A stretch of 63,843 nucleotides of DNA, the filler included, from Folioceros fuciformis (lineage: Eukaryota), in the NCBI GenBank assembly GCA_049999805.1. It is 6 parts of 6 records of this genome, joined end to end, with 100 filler letters (N's around TTAATTAATTAA, not from the genome) between each part and the next. Parts side by side here need not be neighbours in the genome. Positions count along the whole stretch, not along the records: positions 17,879 to 32,697 come from JBNGIO010005490.1; 5 more parts are not named here. The stretch is one strand, 5' to 3'. Positions 11,155-63,698 of this stretch are shown piece after piece (the first letter of the stretch is position 1; each line of letters opens with the position of its first letter). The position numbers were made by a program, and so were the translations under genes. The notes beneath the pieces were generated by a model. It did not search any database. It saw only the letters and a list, made by a program, of their open reading frames with translations, and was not told where the DNA came from.

Positions 11155-11460
11155 GGTTAGTCTTTTCAGAACTAGGGATTCCACTCCCCACATGCACGAC
11201 TATCTACACCAACAATCAAGGCTCAATGGCATTAGCCAAGAACCTTGTGTTTCATTCACGAACGAAGCACGTAGAAGTTGAATATAAGAGAACTGGTGGG
11301 AGTAGGAACCATAGCACTTGAGTATTTATCGACACAAAGCAACCCAGCAGACATTCTCACAAAGGCACTTAGTAGAGATGCTCACCAAAGACACATTCAA
11401 TGCTTAGGTATGGGAGAGTCAGAAGCTCTCTTATCCGACAGCAGCAGTAGTTCAGTATAA
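11155..11460 (+). pseudogene. Copia RNase H C-terminal fragment
   Basis: ELGIPLPTCTTIYTNNQGSMALAKNLVFHSRTKHVEV...NPADILTKAL. Confidence 0.85.
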
Positions 11461-11589
11461 TTCTCTAAGGCCTAGAAACGCGAGTCGAAGCTACCATGGT
11501 CAGAAGGGTAGCCAAAGTCCACTAATTGTCTAGAACGCATAGACTCGGGTTCGGACTCCTCCTCTTCCTCGTAGGAGTCGTGGCCATAA

Positions 11590-12321
11590 CTACTGGAAGG
11601 GGAAGAAAATTTTCTCATCTAGTCTTGGAGAGTTGCGGCGACAACGTTCTTCATACGAAATCCGTTCTTCAGACTCAAGATCAGCTTCTTCTTCAAGTCT
11701 TATGTTAGACCCTGTATAGAAGAAGTGGGAGCAAACGTAAGATATCATCACAAGATAGAATAACAGGAGCAACCAAAACAAGAAAGGTTCATAGATGCTC
11801 ACTATATATGCTAACAACATGATCTGGATCAAATTTGCAGCCATGCACGTGAACCCTTTTCATGGTGATCTCAGTACAACCTAGCCAAACCTTATACCAT
11901 ACAGGTGAGCGAGGATGCTTTATATTCCCACAACTGACAATTCTTGTTTCACAATTTGTGTCAGTAGGTTTAGGGAACACAACAGGTAAAGCAGAACGAG
12001 ACTCATCATCAAAATAGGTAAAATTAGGTTGCTTCGGCTTCGGAAGAGGTTTAGCCGTCGCCTTTGCCTTAGGCACAGGTGGGGTAGAAGGGCAACCCAT
12101 GTCGTAACCGGCTTTAAACGCAATAGCCTCAGTAGTCTTGCGCCGCTCCAGGAACTCCTTTGTAGTTCCCTTGGGTCTTCCCACTCCCCGCTTCACATCT
12201 CTCGCAGTAGTTGGTGTCGAAGCTCCAAGAGTTGTAGTTGTCTAGCGGCAAACCGTCCCTTGGAATCCCATGGCTAATGGCGCTTAGGATTGGGCCCGTA
12301 ATCGCAATATGAGGAAGACAT
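11590..12321 (-). pseudogene. Spliced antisense accessory gene downstream of Copia RNase H (copy 1; intron 11712-11802), unknown function
   Basis: GTGAGC donor and CTTCTTCTATACAG acceptor join ORF 11789-12196 to ORF 11590-11844 in frame (..KVWLG..HVVSIY-R-SNIRLEEEADLE..). AT-hook-like RGVGRPKG present. The 5' part has a stop and a frameshift. Confidence 0.6.
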
Positions 12322-21900: not shown

Positions 21901-22074
21901 CCAAGAGTATGTTACCTTTGCTCAACGCCAGACTGGCGAACTCCTTAAGGCTTTGCGTATAGATGGCGGTGGTGAGTACAATTCCGGTGAGTTCAAAGAT
22001 TATTGCAAGGAGCTGGGGATAGCACGGCAGCTCACCGTGCCGTATATATCCTCGCAAAATCCCATAGCTGAATG
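18994..22074 (+). mobile_element. Degenerate Copia (PBS, long 5' region, gag, protease, integrase), cut by an LTR insertion
   Basis: PBS TGGTATCAAAGC at 18994-19005, IKEKDRFTG..FDIWS, CNWCLIPCHWEAKC, WFIDSGASSH, VHSDLCGP, RIDGGGEY, SQNPIAE. Confidence 0.88.
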
Positions 22075-23481
22075 TGTGGGGAAATATTGTACCTGGTGGT
22101 ACTGCGAGGTCCACACAAACCCTCTTTGTCGTTATAGCTCAGGGATTCGATCCCAAGGGAATGATTTGTGTTAAATAACATGGGTTTCCTTTAAAAGTCA
22201 GTAACTACCTAGGATAGACCTTACCTACCCCAGCTCTACTACCTGGTCCAACTACCCCTACCCCTCAATTGACCTAGCTACCGCGGACTCTACCTTACCT
22301 CTCTAGCCTCGCTTAGCTACCGGGGTAGGGAGCTCTACCGGGACCTCCACTATCGGTAGTCGATTCCACTACCGAGGCAGGACCCACCCCACCTTTTAGC
22401 TAACACGCGCTGGTCAAGTATTGCTCCGCGGTTCTATTAACAATTCCGGGTGGCGTTTTAGTCGTTCCTTGTTCTCCTCGGGACCACACACAACCTGACA
22501 CCCTCTCATTCACCACAAACCACACCACTACTTTCACGCGACGTTCCCCACACACACATGCCCGAAACCCACTCAGGTGGACGTACTCCGCAGTTACTTT
22601 CTCACTCAAAAGTCGGCGCTATCGCTTAGTAGCCTCACCGCACTTTCTCACGCCGTTACTTCCGATCAGTCCTACTCTTAGTCACACCACACTACGCAAC
22701 TTGCATTCACTGTTCCACTCGCGAGAATCTCTCGCGGCGCTTACAACATCCATGCAGCCCCTCACACTCTGGAGCTCTCCCGGCATTCACTCTTCATAAC
22801 CCGTCTATTCAGGGTTGGTTCCGACACACATACACAAGACGATCCCACACACGCAGACATAGGCAGTCACCGCCCAACAAAACTCAACTCCAACATCTCC
22901 TCAGACAGTACAACCCGACGTTCCGCCCCCGGGGCGCAGCCTCCACTGGCTTCTTTGCTCCTTCAGTGTTCTTGTCTCTACCTCGTCGCCACTCCTGTGA
23001 CTGCGTCACACACACTCACAAAGCCCGTTGGCTCAGCCCTCACGCTTCCTGATCATACACTCACTCTTCTCTCGACTCCTTCTCATTCACTCATCTCCCT
23101 CCCGATTCGCCCATGGAACCACTATCGCAGAGCAATGCGACCTCGATGCCACCACCTAGGAATGCTGCGTGCACTCGCCTGCCTGGATCTCCCTATCCAG
23201 CAGCGGTCATCGCCAAGCCCCTCGAGTTTGGAATGTCGGTTTTTTGCTACCTTTTGAGGCGCCAACAGGCCTCTTGTACATTGCGATGGCGGGTCTGCAC
23301 CCGCCATTAAGTTTGGTCCATGGACAGGGAGCCGCTCTTAATTACGAGTGGAGTCAGGTCCAAGAAAAAACATTACCTAGAGACTTTTCTAAGATTTGAA
23401 TCTAGGATGCAATTACTATCGCCGATTTTCATCGCCGCGCCCGCCTTCCTTCTGCCTGCCCACCTCTGGCTCTTCTTCCTC
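22075..23481. mobile_element. Gypsy-type LTR (family B), right end probably interrupted
   Basis: Starts TGTGGGGAAATATTG...GTCCACACAAACC...GATCCCAAGGGAATGATTTG, homologous to the start at 30176, and breaks the Copia integrase. Confidence 0.65.
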
Positions 23482-25676
23482 TGTCAGGCCATGCTGAGTA
23501 ATTAGGATATCTAATTAATCAAATATATGTAATTAGGCTAATTGTATGTAATTAGTCTGATTATGTAATTAGGTAGATCAGGGATAGCTAGGTAGGGTGG
23601 TGGAGAAGAAGCATCATTGTGCGAAATGGTGGAGAGGTTACGAGTGTGGGCGACATGGCGTCCAGAATTGTGCGAAATGGTGGAGAGGTTACGAGTGTGG
23701 GCGACATGGCGCCGCTGGAGAAGAGGAGGATTGGGGGCAACGGCCTGGGGCAGCGTGACAGATAAGTGTCGGAATTCTAGGCTCAGTCACGCGGTTGTTA
23801 GAAGTTCTCTCGTTGAGCCTAAGCCTGCGTTCAAGGTGGCTGGCCAAAGGAACTGCTTGTGAATCCCCTGCTCAAAAATCAGAGTGAAAGCGCTGATGAG
23901 TTGCATTGAGGTGGGAGCATGTGTGACTAACAATCTGAGCGTGCCACGCCGGGGCTAGGTGGAGGACTTACTACGAGTCACAAACCCAGTCGCTGTGATT
24001 GCAGGACTGAGATCTGGCTCACAAACCCCATGACTCGGCCAGGCAAGTTCACAAGGGCCGTGGTGCTTCATCGCGGGCATCAGCACGGCACCGGTGGACG
24101 ACAGTGCTGGACGTTGAGCTGAGACCCTCAGCTCAAGTACCAGGAGAGTTCATGCACGATGTAGTGTCCCGTCGCGAGCATCAGGGCAACACCAGTGCAC
24201 GGCGGCGCTGAGCGTTGGACTGATGGACAACAACAAACTGACGCGTGCGTGAGCGCCAGAGGTCAGGAGGGAAAGACTCATTGAGTGCGGGCTGAGGCTG
24301 TCGATGAACCCGAGCTGACTGTGTGGAAGGCCCGCTCACGAAGCTGAGGATATGACTGCACGGTCTATAGTCTACAGGGGGCACCCAGACGGATCTGAGC
24401 TCGTTCAGTCGTGAGCTGGAGCCGGCAGGAGTAGATTGTGTGTGGGTGTCGATGTCTGTGCGCACGCAAAGCCACAGCTGCCGTTTTCAGGACTGAGGAG
24501 CTGGGGGTCGTGGCGCTGTGCCTGGATCGTGGCGCTATACCTGGATCGCGACTGTGCCTGGATCGCGACTGTGCCTGGATCGCGACACTGTGCTAGGATC
24601 GCGACGCTGTGCCTGGATCGCGATGCTATGCCTGGATCGTGGTGCTGGCCTGGCTTGGGCAGGCTGTGAGCAGGGGAGACTTGAGTCGCGGACAAAGTTG
24701 TGGGGGCGTCAACGAGCACTGCCAACGCTGTTTGTAGAGGTCACCACCGGGATCAGAATCAACGCCTGCGGGACCTTCGTGGTGACACCGACATATGCAG
24801 TAATCCGTGTTGTGCACGCTGGGTGTGTTGGACAGTTGAGAGCCAGCCAGTTGATGCAGACAATTGCCCTGGCTGGACATCACTTGAACATGTTGTGAGG
24901 CTGAGACTGTGTGGTGACGCTTTTGTATGGGAAGCCATTTCTAACAACTGTCCTGAACTTTGTGGCCATCGATTTGGTATGCTGCAGGTTTTTGTCCATA
25001 AACGTATGTGGTTCTGGTTATGTACACTGGGAGACACCCGCCCTTCTTTGTTAGGATCAGGGTGTGGACTGACTGTGCTAAAGTTTTGGTGAGCTAAAAG
25101 AAGGACAGGATACTCACCTTGCTGGGTGTCAGGTTGAGATTGGTACACCGACTACTAAGCTGTAAGTACTGGTTTGGCCTAGATCCTAAGTGAGCAGAGC
25201 TTCAGGCTAGTGGACACTTAGTTGTCGATAGCGTAGTCCTGATGAAGGTCTAGCAGGGAGTCAGGGTCAGTCAATAGGCACAGGTTGCTGTGCACTCTTA
25301 CGTTCTCATTTTTCTTAACTCACTGCTAATTACCGACCTTGTTTGGTTTCTGCATGGACTATATATGCCATTTGATGGGAGTGATGAGGAGCCAGCCTAC
25401 CATCTGAGAAGTAGGACCATTCCACGGTGACCTTGGGTGCCTCGGCGGAGGGCACGGCGTCAATGGACTGCCAAGCCTAGTTCACCAGGGCAGAGACTAG
25501 CTGAGGAGTCGATTGACCGCCACCCTAGCCAGAGTGTCACAGACCAGGGTAGCATTGGGGAAGTGTTTGGATCTGCTAGGGCAGTAGGAGTAAGCTGGTT
25601 GCCTCTGTCGAACATTGTTCAGGCTGTAAGCGGAGACACCAGTTCGGAGGAGAAGGAGTCCAAGGAGTCTGACACC

Positions 25677-27100
25677 ATGGAGGGATCGGAAGCACCTGTT
25701 CACAAGTCTGAAAAGTTCTCTGGCAGGCCAGGGACGCAGACCCTCATGGATTTCAAGTTGTTCCATGGCTTCTTAACCAGCCGCGTTAAGTTTAAGCATG
25801 GAACTGCTTATACCCATAGGTACATGTTTGAATAGCTACCTGGGTATCTAGCTGATGAAGCTTTGGACCTGTTTGAGATTCATGCACCAAAGATGTTGGC
25901 GGTGGTAGAAAAGCTCAACCCTACTTACACAATAGCTCTTCAAGTGGCATACAACAGTCTGCTGGCCACTGTAGTGGCCACTCACCAAGCAGGAATTGCA
26001 GTTGGCACCATCGCAACATCAGTCCCACCACCTACGGTGGTAAACATGACTCAGCAGGAGAGCAGGAGATGGCCACTGCCACAGCTGGTATCCCGGACAA
26101 GTTGGACGTGCCCAAGCACGACAACCCCGTGGAGGATTTCTTTGCGATTTTGGATAGAGCTTTTCCAACCAAGACTGCGGAGAAGATTGCGGAGCTCGCA
26201 GCCTTTGCGTGCAAGAAAGGTGAGACTGTCCACATGGCCTTTAGGCGACTGCAGAAGCTAAGAGATGGTACGGGCATGCTGACCGACCAAGAGGTGGCTC
26301 AAAAGTTTCTGGCTGCCTTGGAGACTGATCCATTGTTTCACTATCAGCTGTTTACTACCTTGGTTGACAAGTATGGGGACAACTACACACTGGATCAAGT
26401 CTACCAAGAAGCGAAGAGGAAGGAACTGGCTTTTCAGCGTATGCTTCTCAGCATACAAAAGCCTTCCACCCATTACCAGCAGATGTTTTCAGGGAAGAGT
26501 AGTTCGGCAACCACTTAGGGTGTTGCCAGCCAGCAAGGGCAGGGAGGCTAAGCCCACCAAGGCTGGGGCAGCAGCTACTGTTACCACACTTTGTAACAGG
26601 TGTGGCAGTGCTGACCATCTCCTGCCTGCATGTAAGGTGGGTACTGACTCCTTACGTTGCACTCACTGCCAGAAAACCGGCCATGTGGAAGTGGTTTGTT
26701 TTTCAAAGTATCCGGAACAACGACCATGGAAAACAGGGACAGGTTCTAGTGTTACCACCACTGCTGCTACTAAGCCTAATACTAATGCGGGAGCAAGTGG
26801 TTCAGGAAGTGCTTCAGCAGGGGCAGCTACAGGAGGGAGTCATCTCAGCAAGAGCCAAGTCAAGCGTGACAAGGCTCAGCAGAAGACGGCTGCCCAAGTC
26901 GACAAATTGATGGCCCTGGAGACAGCCATGGCGGTGTTGACCACTCAGGTCAACACGTTGGTAGCCAGCTTGAATGCTGCTAAGTTTGCCAGTGTGGTAA
27001 AACTGGTGACTACCAAGACAACAGCTAACCTTGATGAAGATTATGGCCTCGTCATGGAAGCCTGCGCAACACACACGGAGCAGTCAAGGTTTGGGTTGTC
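25677..27100 (+). pseudogene. Gypsy gag (frameshifted)
   Basis: MEGSEAPVHKSEKFSG... and knuckles CNRCGSADHLLPAC and CTHCQKTGHVEVVC. Confidence 0.75.
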
Positions 27101-27629
27101 TCATGGCAGAGGCTTAGAGCAATTAGACCTGCCTAGGGTGGGTGAGCAGCTACCACAAACATGGTTGGGACATGCTTTGGGGACAGTTGCCGTTACTACA
27201 CGGCAGCAGGGTGCTAGGGTTGCAATGCCTAGGTCATTCCAGCAGCTTCCACCAGGGTCTAGCGTACTAGTAAGAGGGGCAAATCATTTGCCTAAAGGAG
27301 ATCAGGTGGAACAAGGAGCTGACCAAGTTTCCAACAAGCGTCACAGGCTGGAAACACCCAAGCCTGATCAAGCTGTCCGATTACTGACTATGGTGTTAAC
27401 ACACAAGGAGCTGCTGAAGAGGGTACACAACGCACCCTTACTCAGCCTGCAAGATGTGAGGGTTGAAGAAGACACTGTGGGCATCATGTTGCAGCCTTCA
27501 AAGGCTGAGATGCCGCTGCCTTGTCGTGATCAGTTAGGCTTGATTCCCTTATTGCAAGCAAGAGGGTGCAAGCTGCACTACTGGCTTGTGAAAGCCAGGG
27601 TTTCCCAGTCGTACAACCCACAAATCGGC

Positions 27630-28020
27630 GCAAGGCCACAATTGGCAATGTGCTGGTGGACAATCGTGGCAGCCATGCGCTGGTGAATGGGTTTGCGCCC
27701 AGAGTAGTGTTGTTGGACACAAGGGCAAAGCTAGTCATCATAGGAAAGGTTCTAGCTGCCAGGCTGCGACTGGAAGGGAGTGCTTTACAGCCATCTCCCT
27801 GGAATATTCACACGGCATCAGGGGCTGTTGAACCTGTCAAAAGGGGAAACCACCCAACCAGTCAAGATTACTCTGAAGCCCAACATAGTGGATGAGGTGA
27901 GCTTGACGGTGCGTTGCCTGGTCACAGGGGCCACCAATTATGACATCCTGTTGGGATAGGAATTTTTGTTCCCTCTAGGAGTTTCCATTGACAACTGGAC
28001 AGAACAGGCCTTTTATAGGC
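27630..28020 (+). pseudogene. Retropepsin-like aspartic protease
   Basis: VLLDTRAKLVIIG (DTG motif mutated) and C-terminal YDILLG*EF. Confidence 0.75.
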
Positions 28021-28449
28021 TAGATTGGTAGCAAGGGGGAAAGTGCATTGCTTACCTGCCTTTGGATTTGCATGGCGCCACACAAGCAGCCGAGGCCACA
28101 CTGGTGGTAAGGCAGGCTTGCATGGTGCAGATCCAGCCATGGGAGGATGGGACGCCACCCTCATTACCACAAGACCATCGCGCTCAAGTATGGCTAGCTG
28201 AGTGTGGAGAGGACGAGGATATTCTTGTTCCTGATTCTGAAGAAGATGCGCTGGGAGCGCAGCTGCACTCGTAGGCCCCATTTGGGGTTCTCACAGCCAG
28301 GAAGGAGTGTCTGCAGCAAGCTCAAGAGACCGTCACTCATGTCATGCAAGTACTGCAGCGGGCTCTCACAGACCCAGCCACAGGGGAGACAGCAAATGTT
28401 TCTCCTATTCAACAGGCCGGCCGTCATTGCTTGGCAAGCTACACCACAA

Positions 28450-29400
28450 GGGGTTACCTTGGTGGAGCTGTTTGGGGGCCTGTGCACTGGTCTAGAGGCA
28501 GTGCTGAAGTGAGGCATCACTATTTCTAGATACATCTACTGTAATGGCTGCCCAGCTGTTAGGCACATTGCAATCTATCGAGTGCAATTGCTACAGCAGC
28601 AGTTCCCTCAGCAATTTTCTCGGCAGGCCAACAAGAGCATGTGTAGTGCTGTTCCACAGAACATTCGGTATATCCAGCAAGCACACGTCCAGGTCATTGG
28701 GACTGTGGATTTGCTTATCGCAGGATGGGAGTGCCAGGGTCTGTCCCAAGTTGGGAAAGGAGCAGGGCTGCACGATAGCCGTTCAGGCTTATTTAGAGAT
28801 CTGGTGCAAGTACTGCGATGGCTCCAAGATCAGCACCCACCAGTGGCTTACTTGCTGGAAAATACATCAGCTCAACTGGACGCTCGTCCACAGTTACGCC
28901 AAGACATGGGTGTCATTCAGCAGGTCATTGGCACGCCATTCACCATGGATGCTGCCCAAGTGGGCAGCTATGCTCACAGACTTAGGAATTACCGGACAAA
29001 TCTGGCCCCATTGCCTGTTATGAACTTGGCCTTACAGGAGCCGCTGCGGGACCCTACTTGACTCCTACAAGATGTGCTGGATGACAATCACACCCCCAAA
29101 CCTGTCACAGCCAAGGAGAGGGCCCCATGGTTTCCTACCAACACACCAGGTCAGCCAAGGAGGACTTTGCCTACAGTGGTCAGTTATCTTGGTTCCCTAT
29201 GCATATAGGAATAACGGCCCTGGCATGCTCTTTAATGAGGATACCAAGGTGTGGGACGAACCTCCAATGGAGGAGAGAGAACGGATAATTGGTTTTCATA
29301 CTCACAGCACAGCAGCACCCCAAGCCTACAGGGCACAAAGATTTGCAGCACTTGGCCGTGCTATGGATGTGAGTGCTTTGACTTGGCTGCTTAGCCTTTG
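28450..29400 (+). pseudogene. DNMT3-like C5 cytosine DNA methyltransferase domain within Gypsy pol
   Basis: Motifs in order: I LVELFGGLCTG, IV VDLLIAGWECQGLS (Cys codon 28732-28734), V SRSGLF, VI YLLENT, VIII AHRLRNYRTNL, IX EERERIIGF, X QRFAALGRAMDV. Two TGA stops (28510, 29059) and one frameshift near 29195. Confidence 0.9.
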
Positions 29401-29639
29401 TTTGGCTTTCCAGGTGTTCACTAGACCTCGGGACTACGTTTCCCACATCCAGACCCTGTCCTATCATCCGGATGCAGTTCATTTGCCATTCCTTGGATTT
29501 CGTTACCAAACCTATCAGCTCGATGCCGGGGGGGGGGGGGTGGCGCACATGTCTCCAAAACTTGTTTTTGTTGCGTTGGAGCTGGATTCAGGACTAGGAT
29601 TGTCAGCAGCCGTCAAACCTCCACCTATTACGGAGGCCT

Positions 29640-30175
29640 TTGATTGGATTGGCCTTCGGAACCTGCTTTCACAGTACTCGGACTGTTTTGTCCTGCTTTC
29701 GCAGTACTCGGACTGTTTTGTCCTGCTTTCGCAGTACTCGGACTGTTTTGTCTTCAGCATGAAGGATTTGAAGAGGTGCAATGTTATGATGTTCAAGATC
29801 AACCTCAACACTACTGAGTCGATCTATAGGCGCAGGTATAGGTTGAGCCAATCTGAATGGGAGATTGTGGAAGCACGCTGCCAAGAGCTGTATCCGGCTG
29901 GACTAATCAGACCTTCCAGCTCTGATTACGCAGCCGCTACCGTCCTTCCACCCAAGAAGGACAGCCAAGGCTTTTGGACTGAAAAGCAAATGTGTGGGGA
30001 CTACCGTCCCATCAATGGAGCAACAGCACTTGATAGGTATCCTATGCCTACGCCAAAAGAGTTGCTTGACAACATTGGACAGTCCAAATTCTTCTCTACG
30101 TTGGATTTGCGACAAGGTTTCAACCAGGTGCAAGTGGCAGAGGAGGATATACCCAAGATACCATTTCATGGAGCT
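29640..30175 (+). pseudogene. Gypsy reverse transcriptase, N-terminal half
   Basis: YRLSQSE..GLIRPSSSDYAAATVLPPKKD..MCGDYRPIN..DRYPMP..FSTLDLRQGFNQ. Same ORF (29072-30265) as DNMT motifs IX-X. Confidence 0.92.
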
Positions 30176-31260
30176 TGTGGGGGAAAATATTGCACACGGG
30201 GGTGCAGCGAAGTCCACACAAACCGTCGTTGTAGCCATGGGATCGAATCCCAGGGAATGATTTGATTTGTGCTAAATAACACAGGTTTTCCCACAAAGTT
30301 AATTACTATCTTGGATGGACTTTAATTATCCCAGCTCCACTACCCCCTGGTTCAACTACTGCTACTTCCGTTGCGGCTCAGCTACCACAACCCTAAGCTA
30401 CCTTATAGACTCACTCAGGGGGGATCGCTTCAACTACCAGCTTTTCAGCTACCCCGGACTACCTGCTTTTCAGCTACCCNNNNNNNNNNACTACCAGCTT
30501 TTCAGCTACCCCGGACTACCTGCTTTTCAGCTACCCCGGACTACCAGCTTTTCATCTACCCCGGACTACCAGCTTTTCAGCTACCCCGGGGGCACCTCTA
30601 CTAACCTAGCTCTTGACTACCTCGGTGGTAGTCATTACTGCACGACGAGGTTTGTCTCCACTACCTCGGTGGGGGCCCACTCTCAATCTCTTTCTATCTG
30701 TAACCCAGGTCACCACCTGCGGAGTCTAAACAGTACTTTCGGGGTTTACGCAACCCTTGGCCAGTTACGGCCCTCCAATCACCTACTCTAGCCACCGCTA
30801 TCACTCTTTCGCCACGGCCTTCGCACCCTAGAGACTATTCCACGGATCACACCCCCCTATGGTCACAACCCGGCCCAACTATGATTGCACACCCCCCTAT
30901 GGTCACAACGTGGCCCAACTATGATTGCACACCCCCCTATGGTCACAACCTGGCCCAACTATGATTGCACTGGTTTCCGCTCTTTACCCTAAATAGCCCC
31001 CACTTGGTGCAAACCTCGTTCTCTGAGACAAGCATTCACCAAGACCAGTCATGGACTTGCATGTTTCTCTACCTCTTACCACTCACAAATTATTCAATCT
31101 CCAGCACATACAACAATTCTTACACTTCTCGTCACAACTCTCTTCCCAGCGTCCTTCGTATGTTCCTCCGGTTCCCACACACTCACACATGCACACTTGC
31201 TGTTCCTCCGGTTCCCACACACTCACACATGCACACTTGCTCACTCACCGGACACAAAGG
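30176..31260. mobile_element. Gypsy-type LTR (family B) inserted into the RT
   Basis: TGTGGGGGAAAATATTG start homologous to 22075. Internal ~23-bp and ~39-bp tandem repeats. The right end is uncertain. Confidence 0.65.
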
Positions 31261-32390
31261 TGTGAACCTCCAAAGTTTGGGGTAGTGGTTTGTTTTGGTT
31301 GAAAAAGGGTTAATAGAAGTATGGTTTTGTTTTCTTTTTCTATGTATTTTTCTAATTTTCCTTTATTTTTTGGTCATTTTTCCTATTTTTCTTCCTTCGT
31401 ATGTTCCTCCGGTTCCCACACACTCACACATGCACACTTGCTCACTTACCGGACACAAAGGTGTGAACTTGCGGTAGTGGTTTGTTTTGGTTGAAAAAGG
31501 GTTAATAGAGATATGGTTTTGGGGTAGTGGTTTGTTTTGGTTGAAAAAGGGTTAATAGAGGTATGGTTTTGTTTTCTTTTTCTATGTATTTTTCTAATTT
31601 TCCTTTATTTTTTGATCATTTTTCCTATTTTTCTTTGCGCTAATTAATTTAATTGACCAGGAAATAATTAGATTTTGTTATTAGAGTGGGTATAGGTTTG
31701 GTACTGACCTGAGAAATTGGGTCTGGTACCGGACCATAGGGTCGGGAAAGTTTGAATCTAGGCTTGGTGATTGGTTTATTATTAATTAAAGATATATAAT
31801 ATTAAATGATTAAATAATAATAATAGTATAATAATACTAAATAATATGGGTAAATATAATGGGGTATGTCAGGGTTAGAGTCTATGTCTGGTTGGACTAA
31901 ACGGTCATGGAGGCCGTGACCTGCCTGGGGTAGGGGCTGCGGCCGCTCCCATTCCTCCCTCCCTTTCTCCCTTCCTCTTCATTTTCCTCTTGCCCCATTT
32001 CTTCTCCTTCTGCTTCCCTCTCCATCCCTTTGTCCCTCTTCTTCTTTTGGATCCACATTGCAGGTAGGGGAGGGATCCACATCGCAGATAGGGAAGGGAT
32101 CCTCGAGTGTTGGGAGTGAAGGCGACCGTATACCGCTGCCCTAAAGTTTGTGTAAAAGAGTCCCTGACTATATTGGTATTCGCTGCCCTGTGTAAGTATT
32201 CGCTGCCCTAAAGTTTGTGTAAAAGAGTCCCTGACTATATTGGTGTTCCATACCATATCGTATCGGTATTCCATAATGCACTTAACGTTGACAAGCCTTA
32301 ACTGAAATTCTCTTTTTTCTTATGGCGGCTGACAAGCAATTATCTGTTTTGTATATCTAAACTGAAACATAAAGTTACTACCTAATATCC

Positions 32391-38910: not shown

Positions 38911-39709
38911 TGTGGAGTGATTTCTTGCACCCAAGAACCACCAACGGGCCACACCTCCCCTTATTGTCGTTGCAGCCTTATGATTCACTCGCAAGGGAGT
39001 GAACTAGTGTCAAGGAACACCTATAGCTATCTATTCACACTTCTACCTATCAGCCGGTCTATAGGCCTGAACACACACACACAACAAAGAGGCTAGAAGC
39101 CTAGCCTATCTTCAAATTAGCTCACACAGCTCACACTCCCTATCTTTAGTCCTTCAGCCCTTCATGATTCCCACTTCAGTCCTTCCTCCTTCACTTCAGC
39201 CCTTCACCCGTCACTTCAGCACACCCTTCACCCGTCACTTCAGCACACACTCCTGCACCTCAATAACTCACTCTTCACTTTTATGCACTTCACTCCAACT
39301 CTTCCTCTCTTTGCTTTAGCTATCCTCTGGAAATTGGGACACAACGGCTTCACTCCTTGCAACCTTCAAGCGTAGTGTGGATACTAAAACTGGATAGCCC
39401 ACCTGGCTCACGATCCTATCACTTCACTTCAGCCAGCCTGCGAATCATTCAGCCCTTGCAGATCCGGCCACACGGATCTTAGCAGTCTTGGGATCCTCCA
39501 CATTCCCCTAGTGGCAAAGGAAATCAGGACCTTGGTTCAGTCTCAACCGGCTTAGCGCCCTAAGCCAGGAGTTCTGCACACAAGGTCCAGGGCAATGGCA
39601 CCGTAGACAGCCCCCATTTTAATGGAAGGTCTCCCCTCTTATACTGCCTAGCCCTCCATCTTTGTCTACTAGGGTTAACCTCAGTCAATTACCTAACCAT
39701 CTCTCTCTC

Positions 39710-40430
39710 TGACCTAAACCATCCTACATCTAGTTCTGATCTACACCTGACCTAGGTATGACCTAACCTAATCTAGGTCTATCCTAACTTGGATCTGACC
39801 TAAACCTAACCTAAGTCTAACCTAGACCTAACATGGATCTAACCTAAACTTAACCTAGGTCTGACCTAGACCTAACATAGGTCTGACCTAGACCTAACAT
39901 AGGTCTGACCTAAACCTAACCTAAGTCTAACCTAGATCTAACCTAGGTCTGACCTAGATCTAACCTAAACCTGACCTAGATCTGACCTAAACCTAACCTA
40001 GGTCTGACCTAAACCTAACCTAGGTCTGACCTAGACCTAACCTAGGTCTGACCTAGACCTAACCTAGGTCTGACCTAGACCTAACCTAGGTNNNNNNNNN
40101 NGGTCTGACCTAGACCTAACCTAGGTCTGACCTAGACCTAACCTAGGTTTGACTTAAACCTAACCTAGGTCTGATCTAGACCTAACCTAGGTCTGACCTA
40201 GACCTAACCTAGGTCTAACTTAAACCTAACCTAGGTCTAACCTAGACCTAACCTAGGTCTGACCTAGACCTAACCTAGGTCTGACCTAGACCTAACTTAG
40301 GTCTGACCTAGACCTAACTTAGGTTTGACTTAAACCTAACCTAGGTCTAACCTAGACCTAACCTAGGTCTAACCTAGACCTAACCTAGGTCTGACCTAGA
40401 CCTAACCTAGGTCTGACCTAGACCTAACTC
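39710..40430. repeat. 22-bp tandem array inside the LTR
   Basis: GACCTAGACCTAACCTAGGTCT repeated many times, with a small gap inside. Confidence 0.95.
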
Positions 40431-40799
40431 CAACTAAGAACCCTAACTCTAGCCTACCCCTGCTTCTAATTGCTTGTTACCTCTGAACACGGTTAGCTAC
40501 CCTCTACTCCAAAATAACTACCACAAATCAGGGGTGCTTCTCATTCCCCCTTCTCCTCTCCCGGATGCGATCATCTCCTGCCCTCCGACCATCTGCATTC
40601 TTCAAAGTCTTCCAATCTTCAGGTTCCCCCTCCATTTTGCCAATCCCAAATCAATCCACCCGTAGCCTGTCGCCTGCTAGCCTGGCGGCTATGATTGGCC
40701 TGCTTGGATCCATCGTCTCCCAACCCGCTTGGTCTACCGATCCGATCTCCCGACCGGTTGGATCTGCTAGCCCATCCTTCCCGCTGAACCCGGCTAGGG

Positions 40800-41229
40800 C
40801 CTCCTTCTTGCTATCCTCGGGAAGCTTGATGTCAAGCACGGAAACGTTCTCCTCAAAATTGTGCACCTTAGTTGTTCCTGGAATGGGCACCACATCATCT
40901 CCCTTGTGATGGACCCACGCAAGCGCCAGCTGGCCGGGTGTCTTCCCCCTCCTCCACTAGCTTCTTCATCTCCCCTACCATGGCTTCGATGAGCACGATG
41001 GTGTCGACGCGGTGCTGATAGTAGGAACCGACGTAGTCAACACCCAGCCGCTCTGAACTCGCCTCCAGCGCCGCCCGCACATACTCCAGCTCCCCGTGTA
41101 TTCCACAATTCTGCGCGGCAGGATCCCGAGTGATGCTGAACTTGGTAGCCAGCTGCACCCTGTCCCGGATGCCCTTGATGGCCTTGCCAACCAGCCCCCG
41201 TTGGTGTGCGGCCCATAGACATCGGGCAT
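40800..41229 (-). pseudogene. Captured aldo-keto reductase fragment (plant AKR13 / perakine-reductase-like)
   Basis: [64 protein letters not shown] joined to [25 protein letters not shown]. Confidence 0.88.
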
Positions 41230-44200
41230 GCCCAGGAACTGACGGTCCTTGACTGCCTAGCCAGATCTGTTTGTCGCTGGTCCACCAGCCAACCCGGCTA
41301 GGAAACCAGCCGGCCTTCTGGCGCGGAGCCGGTGCCACTGGCCAGGCTGACTCCCCCAAGCCATCTGCCAGCTAACCTCCTGTTCCTGGCTCTGGTCTGC
41401 CCCGCCGACCTGCCACTACTTAGCTTGCTACACCTATGGATCCCTGCCATGCCGACAGCGCCTGCTTCAATCCTGCCCAGACCTTGACCAGTCTCCACCA
41501 CTTGCCATGCCGACAGCGCCTAGGTCTGCCAGCCTGTGGCCAGACCTGATCCATCCAGCCACGAATCCCTGGATTCTTCCATAGCCCGAGGCGCCCTGCC
41601 TGCTAAGGTCCCATCTGTCTGCCCATCGGTATGTGCCACCAAGCCTCAATTGACTCGAAGCGCCCAGCTTCGCCTGCTGCTGCGGATCCAGCTCAGCCGG
41701 CCACAACCCACCTGATCCAACTCGACTCGCTAGACCGACCAGCCAGTCTGCCTCCTTGCTGTGGATGCGCCACCAAGGCCGGCTGCTTGGCTCTAGTCGT
41801 GGGCAACCGTTCTTCTGCCTGCCAGGTTTCGTCAGCCTCCCCGTGTCGCGAGGCAGCGCCTTGCTCCTTGCCGGGTTGGCCTGGCCATGATCCAGCCAGC
41901 TTGCTAGCCCCACCGACCTGCTGTTGATCAATCCAGGTGCATGCAAGCCGGCCTGCCTTGCATCCTGATTCTGGACTGCCACAGCCCCGGAGCTGATCCT
42001 GACGCACCGGTCTTGTAACCAACCTCATCCACGCCGGCCAGGCTTCGGTGCTGCCTCTAGCATGGCTTGCTTTTGGCTCTGACCTCGCTGCTCTGCTCCC
42101 AACTGTGACCAGCCAAGCCGCTCGATCAGCCCGTCCTAGCCTGGCGTTGGCGGCCGAATCCGTTTGTCACCTGGTCCGCCAGCCAACCCGGCTTGTTGTG
42201 AGCTCCAGCTTGGTCTATTGTTCAGCCCGGCTGGATCCACCAACCGGCCTAAAGCCTTCCGGATCGACTAGCCGACCCACCTCCAGGGTGCCTGGCTGGT
42301 GGCGGCCCAGTCTGCTGGCCCTCCACCTGTGGTCATACCCGCCAGGACATCCTTAGTCACCAAGCCATGCCCGATCGATAGGCCCGAGGCCCTAACCTCT
42401 CGATCCAGCTAGGCACCTCACTACCCAGCTTCCTGATCCTACCACGCCACTAGCAGGCTAGCAACTGCCTGGTTATGACAGCCAGGCGGCCGTTGCCTGG
42501 ATTCTACCCAGCCCGCATGCATCCATCCCAGGCTCACGGTTGTCGAGACTCCTCAGCAGCCCGTCACCTTTCTTCTGCCTTTTGCCCGGACTTAGCTTGG
42601 CTGCTCTGCCTCTGTGGACTCCCAATTCATCCCGCTCCGGCCAGCCCGGCCGCTCCTAGTCATCGGGCTGCTGGTCCAAACCTGGCCAGCCAGCCAGGCC
42701 CCCAATCTCCCCGGCCTATTCTGAGCTCCAGCATGGTCTATTGTCCAGCCCGACTGGATCCACCAACCGGCCTAAAGCCTGGACCTGCAGGACCGCCTCC
42801 AATCAGCCCGGTTGCCTACCTGGCCAGGCTACTCCCCGGCTTGCAGGCAGCCCGTAAGCCTGGCTGCCTATGGCTTGCATCCGGCCAGCCCGGCTGGCCG
42901 AGCAGCCAGGCCAAACTGGCTGCGCCGACCTACTTCGATCCAGCCCCTGGCCGGCCTGCTTGCAGCTCGCCAGGCCGACTAGTCGGGCAGCCCCAACTAG
43001 CCATCCGCCTATCTAGCTCTAGCCAGCCCGCCATTAGGCTGCTGCTTACCTGTGTTCCGCCGCCGTTCCCTCAGCAGCCGCCCACCTGGCCTACATGACT
43101 GCTTGCTAGACAACCTGCCTGATCTGGCCAGGCCCCCGGCCCGGATCTGGCCTCGGGCCTCCTTCTTGCCACCAGCCCGGGCTGGACTGCTGGCTGGGTT
43201 CCAGCAGCCCCGCCTAGCTGCCTACCTTACTCCCTCCAGCGCTCCGGCGGCCTACTCGGTTGACTGCCTCGCAGCTCCGGCCAGGACCCCGGCCTGGGTC
43301 TGGCCATGCGGCCTGCCAGCAGCCAGGTCGCCTACCTAGCGGCTGCCTACTCCTCCCTCAGCCAGCCGGTTGCCTGGCCGCCCGGATGGATCCACCTACC
43401 AGTCACACCACGGACCCTGCTGGGACCTCAGCCCGACCCCGAATGCATCCAGTTCCAGGGCAGCTCACCTCGGCTGATCCCGGCTGCGACTCCTGCTGAG
43501 CCTGCCTTGACCGGTCTCCTGTCTCGATCAACTTGGCTGCCCAGGACGCCAGCGAACTAGCCTGGCCAGCCCCGCTTGCCGATCCTCCTCAGCAGCCCTC
43601 TCTTCTGCCTTCCGGCCCAATCTGCTCCTGTGGTTTGGCCTGGCTTCTAGATCCTCTGGCCCCAGCTGCTTGCCAGCCCATCCTGGCTGTTTGAGGGCCG
43701 GGCGATCGACTACCTAAGGCGGCCAACCAGGCCGCTGTCCCCAGCCGGGACTAGCCACGCCAACCAGCCGAACTCGTCCGCTGCAGCCGGCGCTCATCCT
43801 GGCTCCAACCTTGCTCCAAGCCCTCCGTCAGGCGGCTGCTGGCCCCCGATCCATCTGGTCCGACGCCCTGCTGTTGCTGGCCGCCCAGCCGGCCTGATGT
43901 AGCAGGTTGGCTAGATTCTACTGAGATCCCCCCAAACTTGGTAGCCAGCCTCCTTCCGATCGGCCCGCATGTGTTGGTGCTCGCAACCTGATCGCCATCT
44001 TGTTGTGCTGCTGGCCGCCTGCGTACAGCCCGATAGATTTCTCCCAGGCCGCCTAGCTTGGGCGGCCTACCGATTCGGTCAGGTTCCCGGTGGTCAGCTA
44101 CCAGCCTTTTTGTTCCTGTCGGCCGAGATCCAGCCATCAGCCCTGCCAACCAACACGTCCAATCCGGCTGCCGATCCAGCCATCAGCCCTGCCAACCAAC

Positions 44201-44849
44201 ACGTCCAATCCGGCTGCCGAGCCCGACTCCTGCCAGCGCTCCAGCAACTCACCTGGTTGACTGCCTCAGCCGCCACTGCCCGGTCTCGCCCAGGTCAAGT
44301 CAGCCGATCAGTGTGGCTAGCCAAACTGCCGGCCCATTCCTCATCCGGCTACCCTCCAGCCTACCTACCCTGAGCCGATGCTCCCCCTGACCTGGCCATC
44401 TGGCTGGCTAGCTTTCCCCGAATTTGATGCTCCCACAATCTTAAGCCCTCTCTGCGTGACCGCCTGCTCTCAGACCCTCGGTCCCAGGCACCTCCTCTAT
44501 CCCCGTCTCCCGCTTCCACCAACATCAGCCGGAGAGAGCCCCTGCTCACCTCCCATGACCCGTTCTAGGGTTCCTAGTCCTCTATTACCTTATCCTGAGG
44601 AACTACCTTATCCTGAGGAATTGGAACCCGTGTGTATCTACCACACACCCTCTAGACCCTATCGACTCACCATTAATTTAGCTACTAATCTAACATAATC
44701 TTCTAACCATTTAACTACAGGATATACTCAGAGATTCTAAAAAAAGAAATCCTACATTTTCCAGGGACCTATTCAACATGTGGAGCCCATATACTCCCCT
44801 TCTCATTTGTTGGCGTCCTCGCCAACTATTGATAATATTTTTTCACCCG

Positions 44850-46779
44850 CCAGCCATTAACCCCTAGTTGGCAAGTTAGGGTCGTTGAGGTGCTGCAGTT
44901 GGATGGACCCATTCTCATACACTTCCAGCACCCTGTAAGGTCCCATCCATCTCAAGTACAGCTTGCCTGGAAAGTGCATGTACCTCTTATCATATAACAA
45001 GGCTAAATCTCCAGGCACAACATACTCTTGTTTACGCAACTTCTAGTCGTGCCACTTCTTTCTCCTCCCCTTGACATCAAGGAAAACAGCCAATGCCCAT
45101 TCCATGTCCTCATCATGCTGCAAAAAACTGGTCAGCCTCTCCAGCTGGCTCTCCTCCACGGGCAACCGGTTGCTCTCCTGCATCCTCAAGGTGGGTACCT
45201 CAAATTCGATGGGCATGACTGGTGGGTGTCCATAGGTGAGGTAATAAGGGGTCTGCTGGGTAGTAACTTTCTCAGCAGTCCTATACGCCCACAAGGCTGA
45301 ATGGAGCTTCCTATCCCAGTCATGAGCATAGGTGACAGTGAGTTTGCTGAGAATCTTGCACAACAGCCCATTAGCCTTCTACGTGAGTCCATTGGCCTTA
45401 AGGTTGTAGGGAGTGGTCTTCCTATGACTGATATTGAAATATTCAGTCATGTGCTTGACTACTTCATTGATGAAGTGAGTCCCCCTATTACTCACCAACT
45501 CCAACGAACACCCATACCTTGTAATGATTTGCTCAAACAAAAATCAGGCCACCACATTTGTTGTGTCCATGGGCAAAGCTTGGGCCTCCACCATGCGCGT
45601 GTAGTAGTCGGTTGCCACCAAGATGTATTGGTTCTGCCTTCCCTTGGACTTGGGCTGAATTGGTCCCACAAAATCAATCCCCCACTTCTCAAATGGTGCT
45701 AGGGCTAGGATGGGGACCAATGGCCATTGTGTGGTCCTGGTAGGCTTCCCCACCCTTTGGCACGCGTCACACCTCCTGATGAACCCTTCACCATCAGCAT
45801 GCATTGTTGGCCACCAATACCTTGCTACTAGAATTTTTGTGCAGGTCACATGGGCTGTATAATGGCCCCCAGCCTCTCCCTCATGTAAGGAGCTGATAAC
45901 TTGCTCCACTTGGCCAGGTTTGACCCACAACCTCTCCACGCCATCAGCCCCTGTGCGATACAGCCTGCCCTTGTACTTAACCACCAGCCTTGTGAAGTAC
46001 AAGAATAGCCGCTGCTGCTGCCGTGAGAGATCAGCTGGAAATTCCCCCGTGCCTAAAAAATCAGACACCTCTTGGTAGGAAGGCTTACGGAACCCTCTTC
46101 GCCCCTTCTCATTTGGTGCTGTACCTTCACCTCTTGGTAGCCTAGCATTTGGTTTGGCCCTCTTCTTCTCCACTAGGTTTGCTAAAAATGCCTCATCCGG
46201 AAAATTATCTTCTTGGTCTTGAACCACCTTCTCCGTTTTAAGCCTGGACAGAAAATCAGCATTCATATGCTTGTGCCCTTCCCTTGTTTCCACGGTGAAT
46301 GTGAACTCCTGCAAGAGCAAGATCCAGCGGGCTATGCGGCCCGATAGGTCTGCCTTGTTGACCAGGTGCTTGAGAGCAAAATGATCAACATGGAAGACAA
46401 ACTCATAGGAGAGGAGGTAGTGGCGGAATTTACGACAAGAGTAGACCATGCCAAGTGCCTCCCTCTCGGTTGTGATGTACTTGAGTTCAGCCTCTGTAAG
46501 TTGACGTCCAGCATAGTAGATTGGGTAGTCCCTCCCCTTCTCATCCCGCTGGCTAAGGACTGTTCCAATGGCAAAGGCTGAAACATCCACGTACACATGG
46601 AATTTCTTGTCCCAATCAGGCCCCTTGAGTGTTGGTGCTATCACAAGAGTGGTCCTCAAGTCCTGAAACGCAGCCTCCCTCGGCGCTGTCCACTCCGAAG
46701 ATTGCTCCTTCCTCAATAGGCCCGTCAAAGGGGCAGCCCGCCTAGCAAAATTGGGCACAAACCGGCGGTAGTATCCCAC
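44850..46779 (-). pseudogene. Gypsy RT C-terminus, RNase H and integrase with GPY/F motif
   Basis: GYYRRFVPNF, YVDVSAFAIG, TTEREALG, HMNADFLSR, GGHY..CDACQR, KWGIDFVGP, ATDYYT, PGKLYLRWMGPY. No chromodomain. Confidence 0.93.
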
Positions 46780-47872
46780 CAGCGCTCCAGCAACTCACCT
46801 GGTTGACTGCCTCGCCGGCCGAAGCTCCCTGCCGGCCGGCTGCACCCATCTAGCTCCCCTCCCGCCGTCGATCCACCAACTAGCCTGGCCAGATCAACCA
46901 GTCGGTCTCCTATACCTTCTGCCCCAGCCGCCACTGCCTGGTCTCGCCCAGGTCAAGTCAGCCGATTAGTTTGGCTAGTCGAACAGCCGGCCCATTCCTC
47001 ATCCGGCTACCCTCCAGCCTACTTACTCTGATTCGACGCTCCCCCTGACCTGGCCATCTGGCTGGCTAGCTTTCCCTGAATTTGATGCTCCCACAACCTT
47101 AGGCCCTCCCTGCGTGACCACCTGCTCTCAGACCCTCGGTCCCAGGCACCTCCTCTATCCCCGTCTCCCGCTTCCACCAGCATCGGCCGGAGAGAGCCCC
47201 GGCTCACCTCCCATGACCCATTCTAGGGTTCTTGGTCCTCTATTACCTTATCCTGAGGAACTGGAGCCCGTGTCTATCTACCACACACCCTCCTAGACCC
47301 TATCGACTCACCATTAATCTAGCTACTAATCTAACATAATCTTCTAACCATTTGACTACAGGATTCACTCAGAGATTCCAAAAAAAGAAATCCTACCATT
47401 TTCCAGGGACCTGTTCAACATGTGGAGCCCACACACATCGGCTTCAATCCGATGTTAGGAAACTTAGATAGGAGAAGCCGCCCACCTCAGGGCTGTCTCC
47501 TTTCCTTTTTCATATATGGGACTATATTAGAGTCCTAAGCACCTCCAAAAAAGCATCTTTGGCCCGCCTTCCTCCTGCTCCTGTACCTCCAGCCCTCACT
47601 CCCAATCCTACCCCTAGGAAGAAGGCCCCAGCCTCGGCAACCCAGCCCAAGTCCCTTGCCACAGACCCAGTACCCCTCCCTGTCTCGGAGCCCTCGGAGG
47701 GTAGTAGCAGAGCCGAGCTAGACTCCCCCATGGCCTCAGCACCCAACTCCCCCACCCCTCGACCTTAGAAGGGGAAGTCGGAAGCACCGCCAGCCCAGGG
47801 ACCTTAGCCCAAGAAGTGGCAGCTCCGGGCGATGTCAACTGCAGGGAGGAGGATCCCGATCTGGAGCACCCC

Positions 47873-62991: not shown

Positions 62992-63002
62992 CGCAGGTGA
63001 GT

Positions 63003-63698
63003 TCAAAATAGACGATTAATTTGTCCGATAGGCGCACTTGGTTTCCGATCGCCGCGGGCGGAGAAAGGACATGCACATTCGGAGCAGATCATCTCGGCTT
63101 GGTCAGCTATATTTACTAGAATATCTGTCTCATCATCAAAATCAGAATCTCCTTTGGGAAGGAGCCTATCTAGATGATCTCGAATATTGCTAATTTCTTG
63201 TTGCAAAAAGGCAAAGTTAGAATGATTGGATTTTTGGGTAAGTCTAATGTTACTCTTTATGCAACCAAGAGTTTCTAGCAAATTATTCAAGCCGGGAAAT
63301 GAAGGGCCAGCAACCAAGTTAGGAATATGTTGAAGAGTTAATTGGATTGCAGAAACTTGCAACAAATCAAAAGAGGTAAGTAGATCTTGTCTAGCAAGTC
63401 TAATCAAATTCCCTTGATCTGGTGACTTAATCAAAATAGATCCAATGAAATTAGCAACTTGTTTAGAGACTACTTCAAGCTCTTCACAGCCATGCACTTT
63501 GTTGTTTTTGTGGTCCTTCTGTCCCTTCTCTTGCCTTGCAGCCTTGATATTTCTCCAAACTCCTTGTTTAGTGGGATTTGGTGAATTCATGGTGCAAGGG
63601 CAAGGATTTGATGCACAATTTGTGCATCCTGAAAGTATGATGCTGAGCTTGATCCATTTGCTGCCAAAGGCGAGATCTCCAGCGCATAGAAGTTCCAT
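63003..63698 (-). CDS. Extra ORF (231 aa) between PBS and gag, unknown function
   Basis: Open frame in element-sense orientation, ending 11 bp before the gag ATG (62991). Cys clusters CTNCASNPCPC and CSECAC. Confidence 0.5.
   Translation of the reverse strand: MELLCAGDLAFGSKWIKLSIILSGCTNCASNPCPCTMNSPNPTKQGVWRNIKAARQEKGQKDHKNNKVHGCEELEVVSKQVANFIGSILIKSPDQGNLIRLARQDLLTSFDLLQVSAIQLTLQHIPNLVAGPSFPGLNNLLETLGCIKSNIRLTQKSNHSNFAFLQQEISNIRDHLDRLLPKGDSDFDDETDILVNIADQAEMICSECACPFSARGDRKPSAPIGQINRLF

Follow-up and report, generated by a model that had tools for sequence, protein, structure and literature searches.

Remains of a probable Ty3/Gypsy-type retrotransposon with a DNMT3-like cytosine methyltransferase domain between protease and reverse transcriptase

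The sequence analysed here is a stretch of 63,843 nucleotides (nt) from the assembly GCA_049999805.1, hereafter called the window. Positions 25678-30175 very probably represent the 5' two-thirds of a degenerate Ty3/Gypsy-type retrotransposon copy in the order gag, protease (PR), DNMT3-like cytosine methyltransferase (DNMT) and reverse transcriptase (RT), to which intact relatives add RNase H and integrase. An earlier note, made from the sequence alone, had claimed a methyltransferase embedded in a Gypsy pol region between PR and RT, downstream of gag and without introns. This arrangement was recovered: in tblastn comparisons with the proteins of relatives, gag, PR, DNMT and RT are collinear on the + strand, and the same order is found in single open reading frames (ORFs) of relatives. 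The features of the element and of its surroundings are listed in Table 1.

Identity of the methyltransferase domain

The domain contains motifs I, IV, VI, VIII, IX and X in canonical order, and all six strings named in the earlier note were obtained by translation where it had placed them. The Pfam profile PF00145, which the note had proposed as a check, matched the middle ORF (28513-29061, 182 amino acids, aa) with an E-value of 3e-8 and 33.9 bits, above the curated cut-off of 22 bits. The match spans profile positions 43-113 of 324. A read-through translation with X at both TGA stops was matched with an E-value of 7.8e-8 and 32.5 bits. When all PDB chains were searched with phmmer, DNMT3A was the top match (1.4e-8), followed by DNMT3B and 3C and then by M.HhaI. 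The alignment to DNMT3A extends from motif I through motif VIII and places W-E-C of the window under S-P-C, so that Glu stands in place of Pro. Six motifs, the PF00145 match and the PDB match are together far beyond chance and confirm the methyltransferase.

A family profile of 20 sequences was compared with the PDB and gave the best values for DNMT3A (1.5e-22), DNMT3C (8.8e-21) and DNMT3B (about 3e-20). Tobacco DRM (4.7e-16), DRM2 (9e-11), M.HhaI (1e-9) and DNMT2 (8.5e-7) were matched as well, and no match to DNMT1 was obtained among the solved structures at E ≤ 0.01. The domain of the intact relative P0147 was modelled with AlphaFold2 from a 20-sequence alignment (pLDDT 91.8, pTM 0.90). A Foldseek search of the PDB with this model returned DNMT3A, 3B or 3C throughout among the matches listed (ranks 1-50), with E-values of 4e-18 to 1e-14, target TM scores of 0.40-0.83 and identities of 18-20%. 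A search of the ESM Atlas yielded generic DNA-methylase clusters only. The DNMT3 likeness noted earlier is thus supported, by comparison with solved structures only, namely by sequence profile and predicted fold.

By both profile and fold, the host enzymes DNMT3A, 3B and 3C are the closest solved structures to the family. In plant DRM the motif order is rearranged, whereas the order in the window is canonical, as in DNMT3. Animal DNMT3 proteins carry PWWP and ADD domains as companions. In contrast, no Pfam match to either was found in the ORFs of the window or in the relatives P0002, P0003, P0012, P0147, P0205 and P0278, and the domain of the window is embedded in a retrotransposon polyprotein. 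Judged by these sequence features, it appears to be a DNMT3-type catalytic domain; it is not a host-type DNMT3 gene. Its identity to relatives is 42-49% over the domain.

Anatomy and decay of the copy

No second copy of the non-coding region upstream of gag was found within the window, and the terminal repeat can therefore not be delimited. The start of gag, MEGSEAPVHKSEKFSGRPG, resembles the start of P0002, and a weak Pfam match to zf-CCHC (E 0.17) was obtained in the window gag. The gag frame is shifted near 26060 and at 26431-26496. PF13975 matched the protease with an E-value of 0.0017 and 19.3 bits, which is under its cut-off of 28.2 bits. The protease reads DTRA where relatives have DTGA, its frame is shifted near 27839, and the frame changes again between 28196 and 28294.

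According to tblastn, the DNMT runs in a single frame from 28294 to 29196, interrupted by two TGA stops (28510-28512 and 29059-29061), and resumes at 29198 past a frameshift (29196/29198). Motifs IX-X and the N-terminus of the RT share one ORF (29024-30265), as had been noted earlier. In the linker just before the RT, the relative P0003 has a single equivalent of the 30-nt unit that is present three times in the window. RVT_1 was matched with an E-value of 3.5e-4 and 20.8 bits, a score under its cut-off because the RT domain is truncated. One contig of the sequencing run X1 (runs are described below) continues past 30173 into other sequence, which was read by eye as continued RT.

The element is ended by a different repeat. 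Members of this repeat family are found at 22073-22261 and 30176-30365, and its terminus cuts a Copia pol at 22072 and the RT of the Gypsy-DNMT copy at 30175. From 30176 on, the summed depth in public DNA runs is 289-451, which is two- to fourfold the depth over the element. Eight contigs of run X2 arrive at 30176 from unlike sequence. The pair was considered as the long terminal repeat (LTR) of the element and rejected, as it belongs to another repeat family.

The copy is dead and truncated. No protein is possible, because gag, PR and DNMT are interrupted by stops and frameshifts and everything past the early RT is lost. The two TGA stops and the single frameshift in the DNMT, for which the earlier note had called the copy dead, were confirmed, and the defects in gag, protease and RT are additional to them.

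Table 1 Features of the element and of other parts of the window
Feature	Position	Strand	Basis or remark
Upstream non-coding part of element (5' repeat and leader)	23500..25677	+	Multi-copy depth in X2 and X3 contigs from the first base compared (23500) on
gag, ATG at 25678, CCHC-like knuckle at about 26592-26700	25678..26984	+	tblastn of P0002 residues 11-411 onto 25710-26984, three frames, 30-47% identity
Aspartic protease, two frames	27539..28196	+	tblastn of P0002 675-854 and P0001 2-199
DNMT3-like C5 cytosine methyltransferase domain	28426..29420	+	Motifs I-X in canonical order; PF00145; PDB DNMT3A; relatives
Motif LVELFGGL	from 28450	+	Translation
Motif DLLIAGWECQGLS	28708-28746	+	Translation
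Motif YLLENT	28849-28866	+	Translation
Motif AHRLRNY	28972-28992	+	Translation
Motif EERERIIGF	29270-29296	+	Translation
Motif QRFAALGRAM	29336-29365	+	Translation
Triplicated 30-nt unit in frame (LLSQYSDCFV, three times), linker just before RT	29662..29752	+	Tandem Repeats Finder: period 30, 3.0 copies, 98% matches
RT, N-terminal part, breaks off after ...IPKIPFH	29720..30175	+	tblastn of P0003 228-567 onto 29198-30175 (42% identity) and of P0010 31-183 onto 29720-30166
Start of different, more abundant repeat ending the element (not part of element)	30176..30365	+	73% identity, same orientation, to 22073-22261
Aldo-keto reductase (PF00248), two pieces (profile positions 49-131 and 236-282), intronless, different frames	40654-41371	-	Pfam
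Other Gypsy fragment (RNase H, integrase zinc domain)	45121-46827	-	Between direct repeats 44261-44760 and 46919-47401, 93-94% identical
Copia element, open frames of 702, 273 and 239 aa (gag, integrase, RT domains)	59661-63015	-	Much better preserved than the Gypsy-DNMT copy

Relatives and phylogeny

A word-indexed protein search with the 182-aa piece returned 24 proteins of 320-2000 aa. The best match came from the liverwort Calypogeia fissa: an unnamed product (P0001, 557 aa) that consists of protease and DNMT, is 45% identical and lies on a 66.6-Mb contig. It was followed by the metagenome proteins P0002 (gag-PR-DNMT) and P0003 (DNMT-RT-RNase H), and then by proteins of Closterium NIES-53 and NIES-54 and of Haematococcus lacustris. 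An exhaustive search of 1.84 billion representatives gave 1097 matches at E ≤ 1e-3, of which 335 reached E ≤ 1e-10 and 9 reached E ≤ 1e-30. The highest identities belong to partial matches (60% for P0190, 52% and 50% for two others); across nearly the whole piece, P0188 is the best match with 49%.

The domain order of the window occurs in uninterrupted ORFs of P0147 (1315 aa) and P0205 (2188 aa), and the full pol order is found in P0173 as well. In the single ORF of P0205, Pfam matches were obtained to zf-CCHC (530-547), protease (796-888), DNA_methylase (978-1226), RVT_1 (1421-1575), RNase H (1638-1766) and integrase (1895-2061). The intact copies of the same order for which the earlier note had suggested looking are therefore available in relatives as uninterrupted polyproteins.

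The domain order of 164 relatives covering at least 200 DNMT residues was typed by blastp against reference domain segments. Two pol architectures were found: RT-RNase H-DNMT-integrase, mostly followed by a PHD finger (90 relatives, hereafter RH-DNMT-INT), and gag/PR-DNMT(-RT), the architecture of the window (21 relatives). The DNMT stood alone in 52 cases, and one case was mixed. A FastTree phylogeny of 165 DNMT domains is split into sides of 39 and 126 rows with a support of 91. All 22 gag/PR-DNMT rows, the window included, fall on the smaller side and all 90 RH-DNMT-INT rows on the larger one, so that none of the latter (0/90) is placed among the former. An IQ-TREE phylogeny (LG+C20, short search) was computed from 63 rows, comprising 33 of the 39 rows of the gag/PR-DNMT side together with 30 rows drawn from across the other side; the six rows dropped were near-copies or had a gap at motif IV. 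Only one change of architecture is needed on this tree (SH-aLRT 81). The DNMT tree thus tracks the architecture of the elements.

The window falls into a group of 10 rows (SH-aLRT 96; support 97 for the matching FastTree group) with P0188, Calypogeia fissa P0001, the metagenome proteins P0002-P0005 and P0147, separate from the Closterium group. Calypogeia fissa P0001 is its nearest named neighbour. The named holders of the same architecture are Klebsormidium nitens (GAQ93235.1), Closterium NIES-53, NIES-54 and NIES-68 (the latter P0232) and Calypogeia fissa. Among the best DNMT matches, cluster entries yielded no organism for 20 proteins and two organisms, K. nitens and Closterium NIES-68, for a set of 10.

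The RH-DNMT-INT elements, among them Haematococcus lacustris QJQ45_005505 and a large number of metagenome proteins, carry a homologous DNMT (36-42% identity) with the same motif set, and 83 of the 126 rows on their side of the tree have the EC loop described below. They differ in the position of the DNMT, which in the window separates PR from RT but in these elements follows RNase H and precedes the integrase, itself followed by a PHD finger.

A metagenome scan yielded 80 loci, eleven of which (L001-L011) are 69-80% identical to P0147. Seven loci were compared with themselves. L001, L006 and L010 showed the arrangement A - coding - B - A - B, with A of about 290 nt and B of about 175 nt; in L010 the repeats lie at 733-1022 (A), 11183-11355 (B), 11357-11650 (A) and 11652-11824 (B). 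These are split direct repeats and not plain LTRs, though relatives encode an integrase. L003 and L005 have the B...B pair alone, and L004 and L008 nothing comparable.

Copies in the sequencing runs of the organism

Three public runs of the same organism, from two studies, carry the stretch, and their contigs were aligned at 80% likeness to 23500-31500. The best DNA run is possibly the sample behind the assembly. The DNA runs X2 and X3 contributed 1052 and 1168 contigs, respectively, to this region, with 80-100% identity. Those of X2 are distributed over the identity bands of 99% and above, 95-99%, 90-95% and below 90% with 331, 215, 277 and 229 contigs. The depth summed over the X2 contigs, which is not a copy number, is 81-120 in the DNMT bins, 78-117 in the gag bins and 92-113 in the RT bins.

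Individual DNMT sites show an alternative letter in 4 to 10 distinct contigs. At 28543 and 28547, nine contigs of X2 and ten of X3 differ from the window, and by codon reading their letters restore the residues of relatives. Some contigs differ in length at 26053, 26433, 27839 and 29195, the frame-change sites of the window, and the frameshifts of the window are therefore not common to all copies. The DNMT-bearing family is multi-copy in the host. A one-off insertion of the domain, which the earlier note had considered as an alternative, is contradicted by the contigs of X2 and X3, which cover the DNMT as they cover gag and RT.

Changes between the X2 copies comprise C>T at 348 and G>A at 354 places, compared to T>C at 225 and A>G at 193. 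Such an excess would be expected from deamination of methylated cytosines. One contig of run X1, 1359 nt in length, equals positions 27634-28992 without any difference and spans the PR-DNMT junction. As the RNA nature of X1 is a guess, X1 contigs identical to the window were not used as evidence of transcription.

Two side observations were made in these runs. In run X4, of the same sample, C>T (304) and G>A (161) exceed all other changes on 23500-31500, and the loose ends are poor in C, which resembles a bisulfite library. In one X3 contig, 27039 is joined to 27195, with 155 bases replaced by 18 letters that include two units of TTTAGGG, the plant-type telomere repeat.

The Glu-Cys loop

Motif IV of the window reads GWECQ, with E-C for P-C. 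The earlier note had regarded this WEC in place of PC as unusual. The loop is indeed present, but it is not unusual within the family. In a first set of 54 rows, 52 of which have motif IV letters, GWECQ was found 39 times and GFECQ twice; Pro forms occurred in 8 rows (GWPCQ 3, GWPCE 4, GPPCQ 1) and other forms in 3 (GWSCE, GWSCQ, GWECS). In the alignment of 165 rows, the position preceding the Cys is occupied by E in 110 rows and by P in 42 (PC in 41, PY in one); S occurs six times there, D four times and C once, and two rows are gapped. Long ORFs (1500 aa or more, n = 49) likewise have EC in 34 and PC in 10 cases. The other diagnostic positions of the 165-row alignment are nearly invariant: the Cys in 162/163 rows, the second Gly of motif I in 151/151, the Glu of motif VI in 164/164 and the Arg residues of motif VIII in 160/163 and 159/163. 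On the FastTree phylogeny, the E/P state changes at least 14 times. The Glu-Cys loop is real; it prevails in the family and did not arise by decay of the copy in the window.

Proposed function and alternative explanations

In intact members, the methyltransferase would be translated within Pol and then either released by the protease or kept attached to the RT. It may methylate cytosines of the element's own new cDNA or of integrated copies, with the Cys of G-W-E-C-Q as nucleophile and the motif VI Glu (ENT) as proton donor. The likely gain for the element would be control of its own chromatin state, by self-dampening or by mimicry of host-type CG methylation. Because the catalytic residues are near-invariant across very divergent elements, we infer that the Pol of intact members includes a cytosine methyltransferase with de novo activity.

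Several points weigh against this reading of the element and its enzyme. In the window, tblastn with the proteins of relatives found no C-terminus of the RT, no RNase H, no integrase and no 3' end. Neither an LTR nor any other terminal direct repeat was found around the element in the window, since its 3' end is missing, and a primer binding site and a target site duplication were likewise not identified there. With RNase H, integrase and terminal repeats absent from the window, the Gypsy class of this copy rests on its relatives. Decay is common in the nearest metagenome subclade: stops (2-15 per segment) were found in 9/9 DNMT segments translated from L001-L008 and L010, for which reason a dN/dS analysis of these nearest DNA relatives was dropped. 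There is no Gypsy-borne DNMT with demonstrated enzymatic activity, and the sole one tested, that of K. nitens, showed no methylation in yeast (accessible text of PMC5890265). Self-methylation as the purpose of the enzyme is a supposition of ours, and the replacement of Pro-Cys by Glu-Cys, as read from the alignments, may affect catalysis.

The yeast result and the presence of Glu for Pro in 110/163 rows would also fit a domain of the EC type that is no longer a DNA methyltransferase, but serves the element as a module for targeting or for binding to DNA or chromatin, or as an enzyme for a different substrate, for instance RNA. We consider this unlikely. The K. nitens protein that was seen has PC, and its negative result in yeast therefore says nothing on EC. 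At the other catalytic and S-adenosylmethionine-binding positions, conservation is at least 97% among rows that have diverged by more than one change per column, a level in excess of what a mere binding module would require, and the repeated interchange of E and P on the tree is as expected if both work. A DNMT outside the element, whether a pseudogene of host DNMT3 or a chimera of the assembly among retrotransposon fragments, is extremely improbable. The scaffold is rich in gaps (18 N runs in the window), and the truncation of the element adjoins such a region. However, no N gap lies within 25678-30175, where PR, DNMT and RT are collinear, and the identical X1 contig crosses the PR-DNMT junction. 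The uninterrupted ORFs of P0147 and P0205 have the same order, and the DNMT tree follows the architecture. We therefore retain the reading of a methyltransferase that belongs to the element.

As for the host, three indirect hints, namely the grouping of the DNMT with a liverwort, the likeness of the gag and the matches of the Copia element, make a land plant reasonably likely. The window DNMT is grouped with Calypogeia fissa, apart from both Closterium and Klebsormidium. Its gag is 34-47% identical to the Calypogeia-type group, whereas the gag-bearing Closterium query P0012 gave no gag match in tblastn. The 702-aa Copia ORF of the window has unnamed proteins as best matches (42% identity) and named ones at 28-38% (120 matches listed). 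The named matches are nearly all from seed plants, the only plants among them, with one from the oomycete Peronospora and no green alga among the matches listed, although the database searched contains transposable element (TE) proteins of Closterium; transposon trees need not follow host trees. A streptophyte alga (a zygnematophyte or another charophyte) as host, with the element as a further algal Gypsy-DNMT3 of the published kind, is the less likely but still conceivable alternative. The named algal holders of the same architecture, K. nitens and the three Closterium strains, speak for it, and the window offers no gene or RNA marker that would name the host: no Rfam family and no tRNA were found within it, and its only non-TE coding remnant is a fragment of an aldo-keto reductase.

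Other features of the window

The aldo-keto reductase fragment lies in GC-rich surroundings and lacks profile positions 132-235. It is a pseudogene or a captured gene fragment. As a host marker it was rejected, being intronless, frameshifted and internally deleted. It adjoins a long array of an 11-nt tandem unit (39662-40425), in which at least 39 overlapping 300-nt copies were counted. A further Gypsy fragment and the Copia element are included in Table 1.

Significance

A further reading, tentative and taken as a whole rather doubtful, is that the host is a land plant in which a Gypsy lineage is present in multiple copies, has been active at least recently and encodes, with its Glu-Cys DNMT3-like domain, a working de novo methyltransferase. 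If true, embryophytes would gain their first described transposon-encoded DNA methyltransferase, an enzyme that could methylate the copies of its own element or the chromatin of the host. The supposedly lineage-specific capture of Klebsormidium would then be an old family across green plants with two pol architectures. Transposons equipped with the silencing enzyme of the host are a rare inversion of the arms race, so far documented for dinoflagellates and one charophyte. To these the window adds a divergent multi-copy branch, the nearest named relative of which lies on a liverwort chromosome. The family is large (335 sequence clusters at E ≤ 1e-10), and most of its members have Glu-Cys with the other catalytic residues kept. 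Should the host be a land plant, plant methylome studies must reckon with a transposon-borne writer of methylation. The interest thus lies in the possible land-plant host, the size of the family, its two architectures and the recurrent change from Pro to Glu rather than in the broken copy of the window, which is itself without function.

Comparison with known systems

No paper on a Gypsy-DNMT in a land plant, on the Glu-Cys loop or on the Gypsy group of RH-DNMT-INT(-PHD) order (P0010, P0011, P0013, P0020 and about 86 others) was found in the literature searched, which comprised accessible text, including that of PMC11982613, PMC6317226 and PMC6453930, with subscription journals and supplements outside the search. 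Neither 'methyltransferase' nor 'methylase' occurs in the accessible part of PMC6317226, which surveys plant LTR retrotransposons. The view of the earlier note that no land-plant case is established holds for this literature. It does not hold for the databases, which already contain such a case in the PR-DNMT relative of the Calypogeia fissa genome.

For charophytes, the earlier note was right in pointing to a precedent. KnitGypsy-Dnmt3 of K. nitens is described in the accessible text of PMC5890265 (de Mendoza et al. 2018) as an intronless DNMT3-related domain inside a Gypsy-type pol. In the same text, the authors hold that it was captured independently in the lineage of K. nitens, the legend of Fig. 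4c gives a DIRS-like arrangement of its terminal repeats, and the absence of methylation by the K. nitens Gypsy-borne DNMT in yeast is called inconclusive. TE-borne DNMT3 in 'streptophytes' has been cited after that work (the 2026 preprint 10.64898/2026.05.21.726589 and PMC12344493, accessible parts). The K. nitens protein GAQ93235.1 (P0278) has Pfam matches to zf-CCHC, protease and DNA_methylase in that order. In the IQ-TREE phylogeny it is among the 33 rows of the gag-PR-DNMT side (SH-aLRT 81), in another subclade than the window. We infer that it is one of the published KnitGypsy-Dnmt3 copies and, likewise, that the published element has this domain order.

Seen through GAQ93235.1, KnitGypsy-Dnmt3 shares with the window an intronless DNMT3-related domain in a Gypsy pol and the order gag-PR-DNMT. 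Its DIRS-like repeats are of the same A - coding - B - A - B type as those of L001, L006 and L010, relatives of the window. The two differ in that GAQ93235.1 is only 31% identical to the window DNMT (over 268 aa) and has the canonical loop G-F-P-C-Q, compared to G-W-E-C-Q in the window. On these comparisons, the element of the window belongs to the same gag-PR-DNMT lineage as the K. nitens protein. Its kind is already known, because the lineage is shared with a protein of the species from which KnitGypsy-Dnmt3 was published.

SymbioDIRS-Dnmt3 and SymbioLINE-Dnmt of Symbiodinium are independent captures according to the same authors, and de novo CG methylation was shown in yeast for SymbioDIRS-Dnmt3 (PMC5890265, accessible text). 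Likened by description, both are retrotransposon-encoded C5 methyltransferases within Pol, as is the domain described here. In contrast to the element of the window, they belong to other classes (DIRS with a tyrosine recombinase, and LINE) and to another host lineage.

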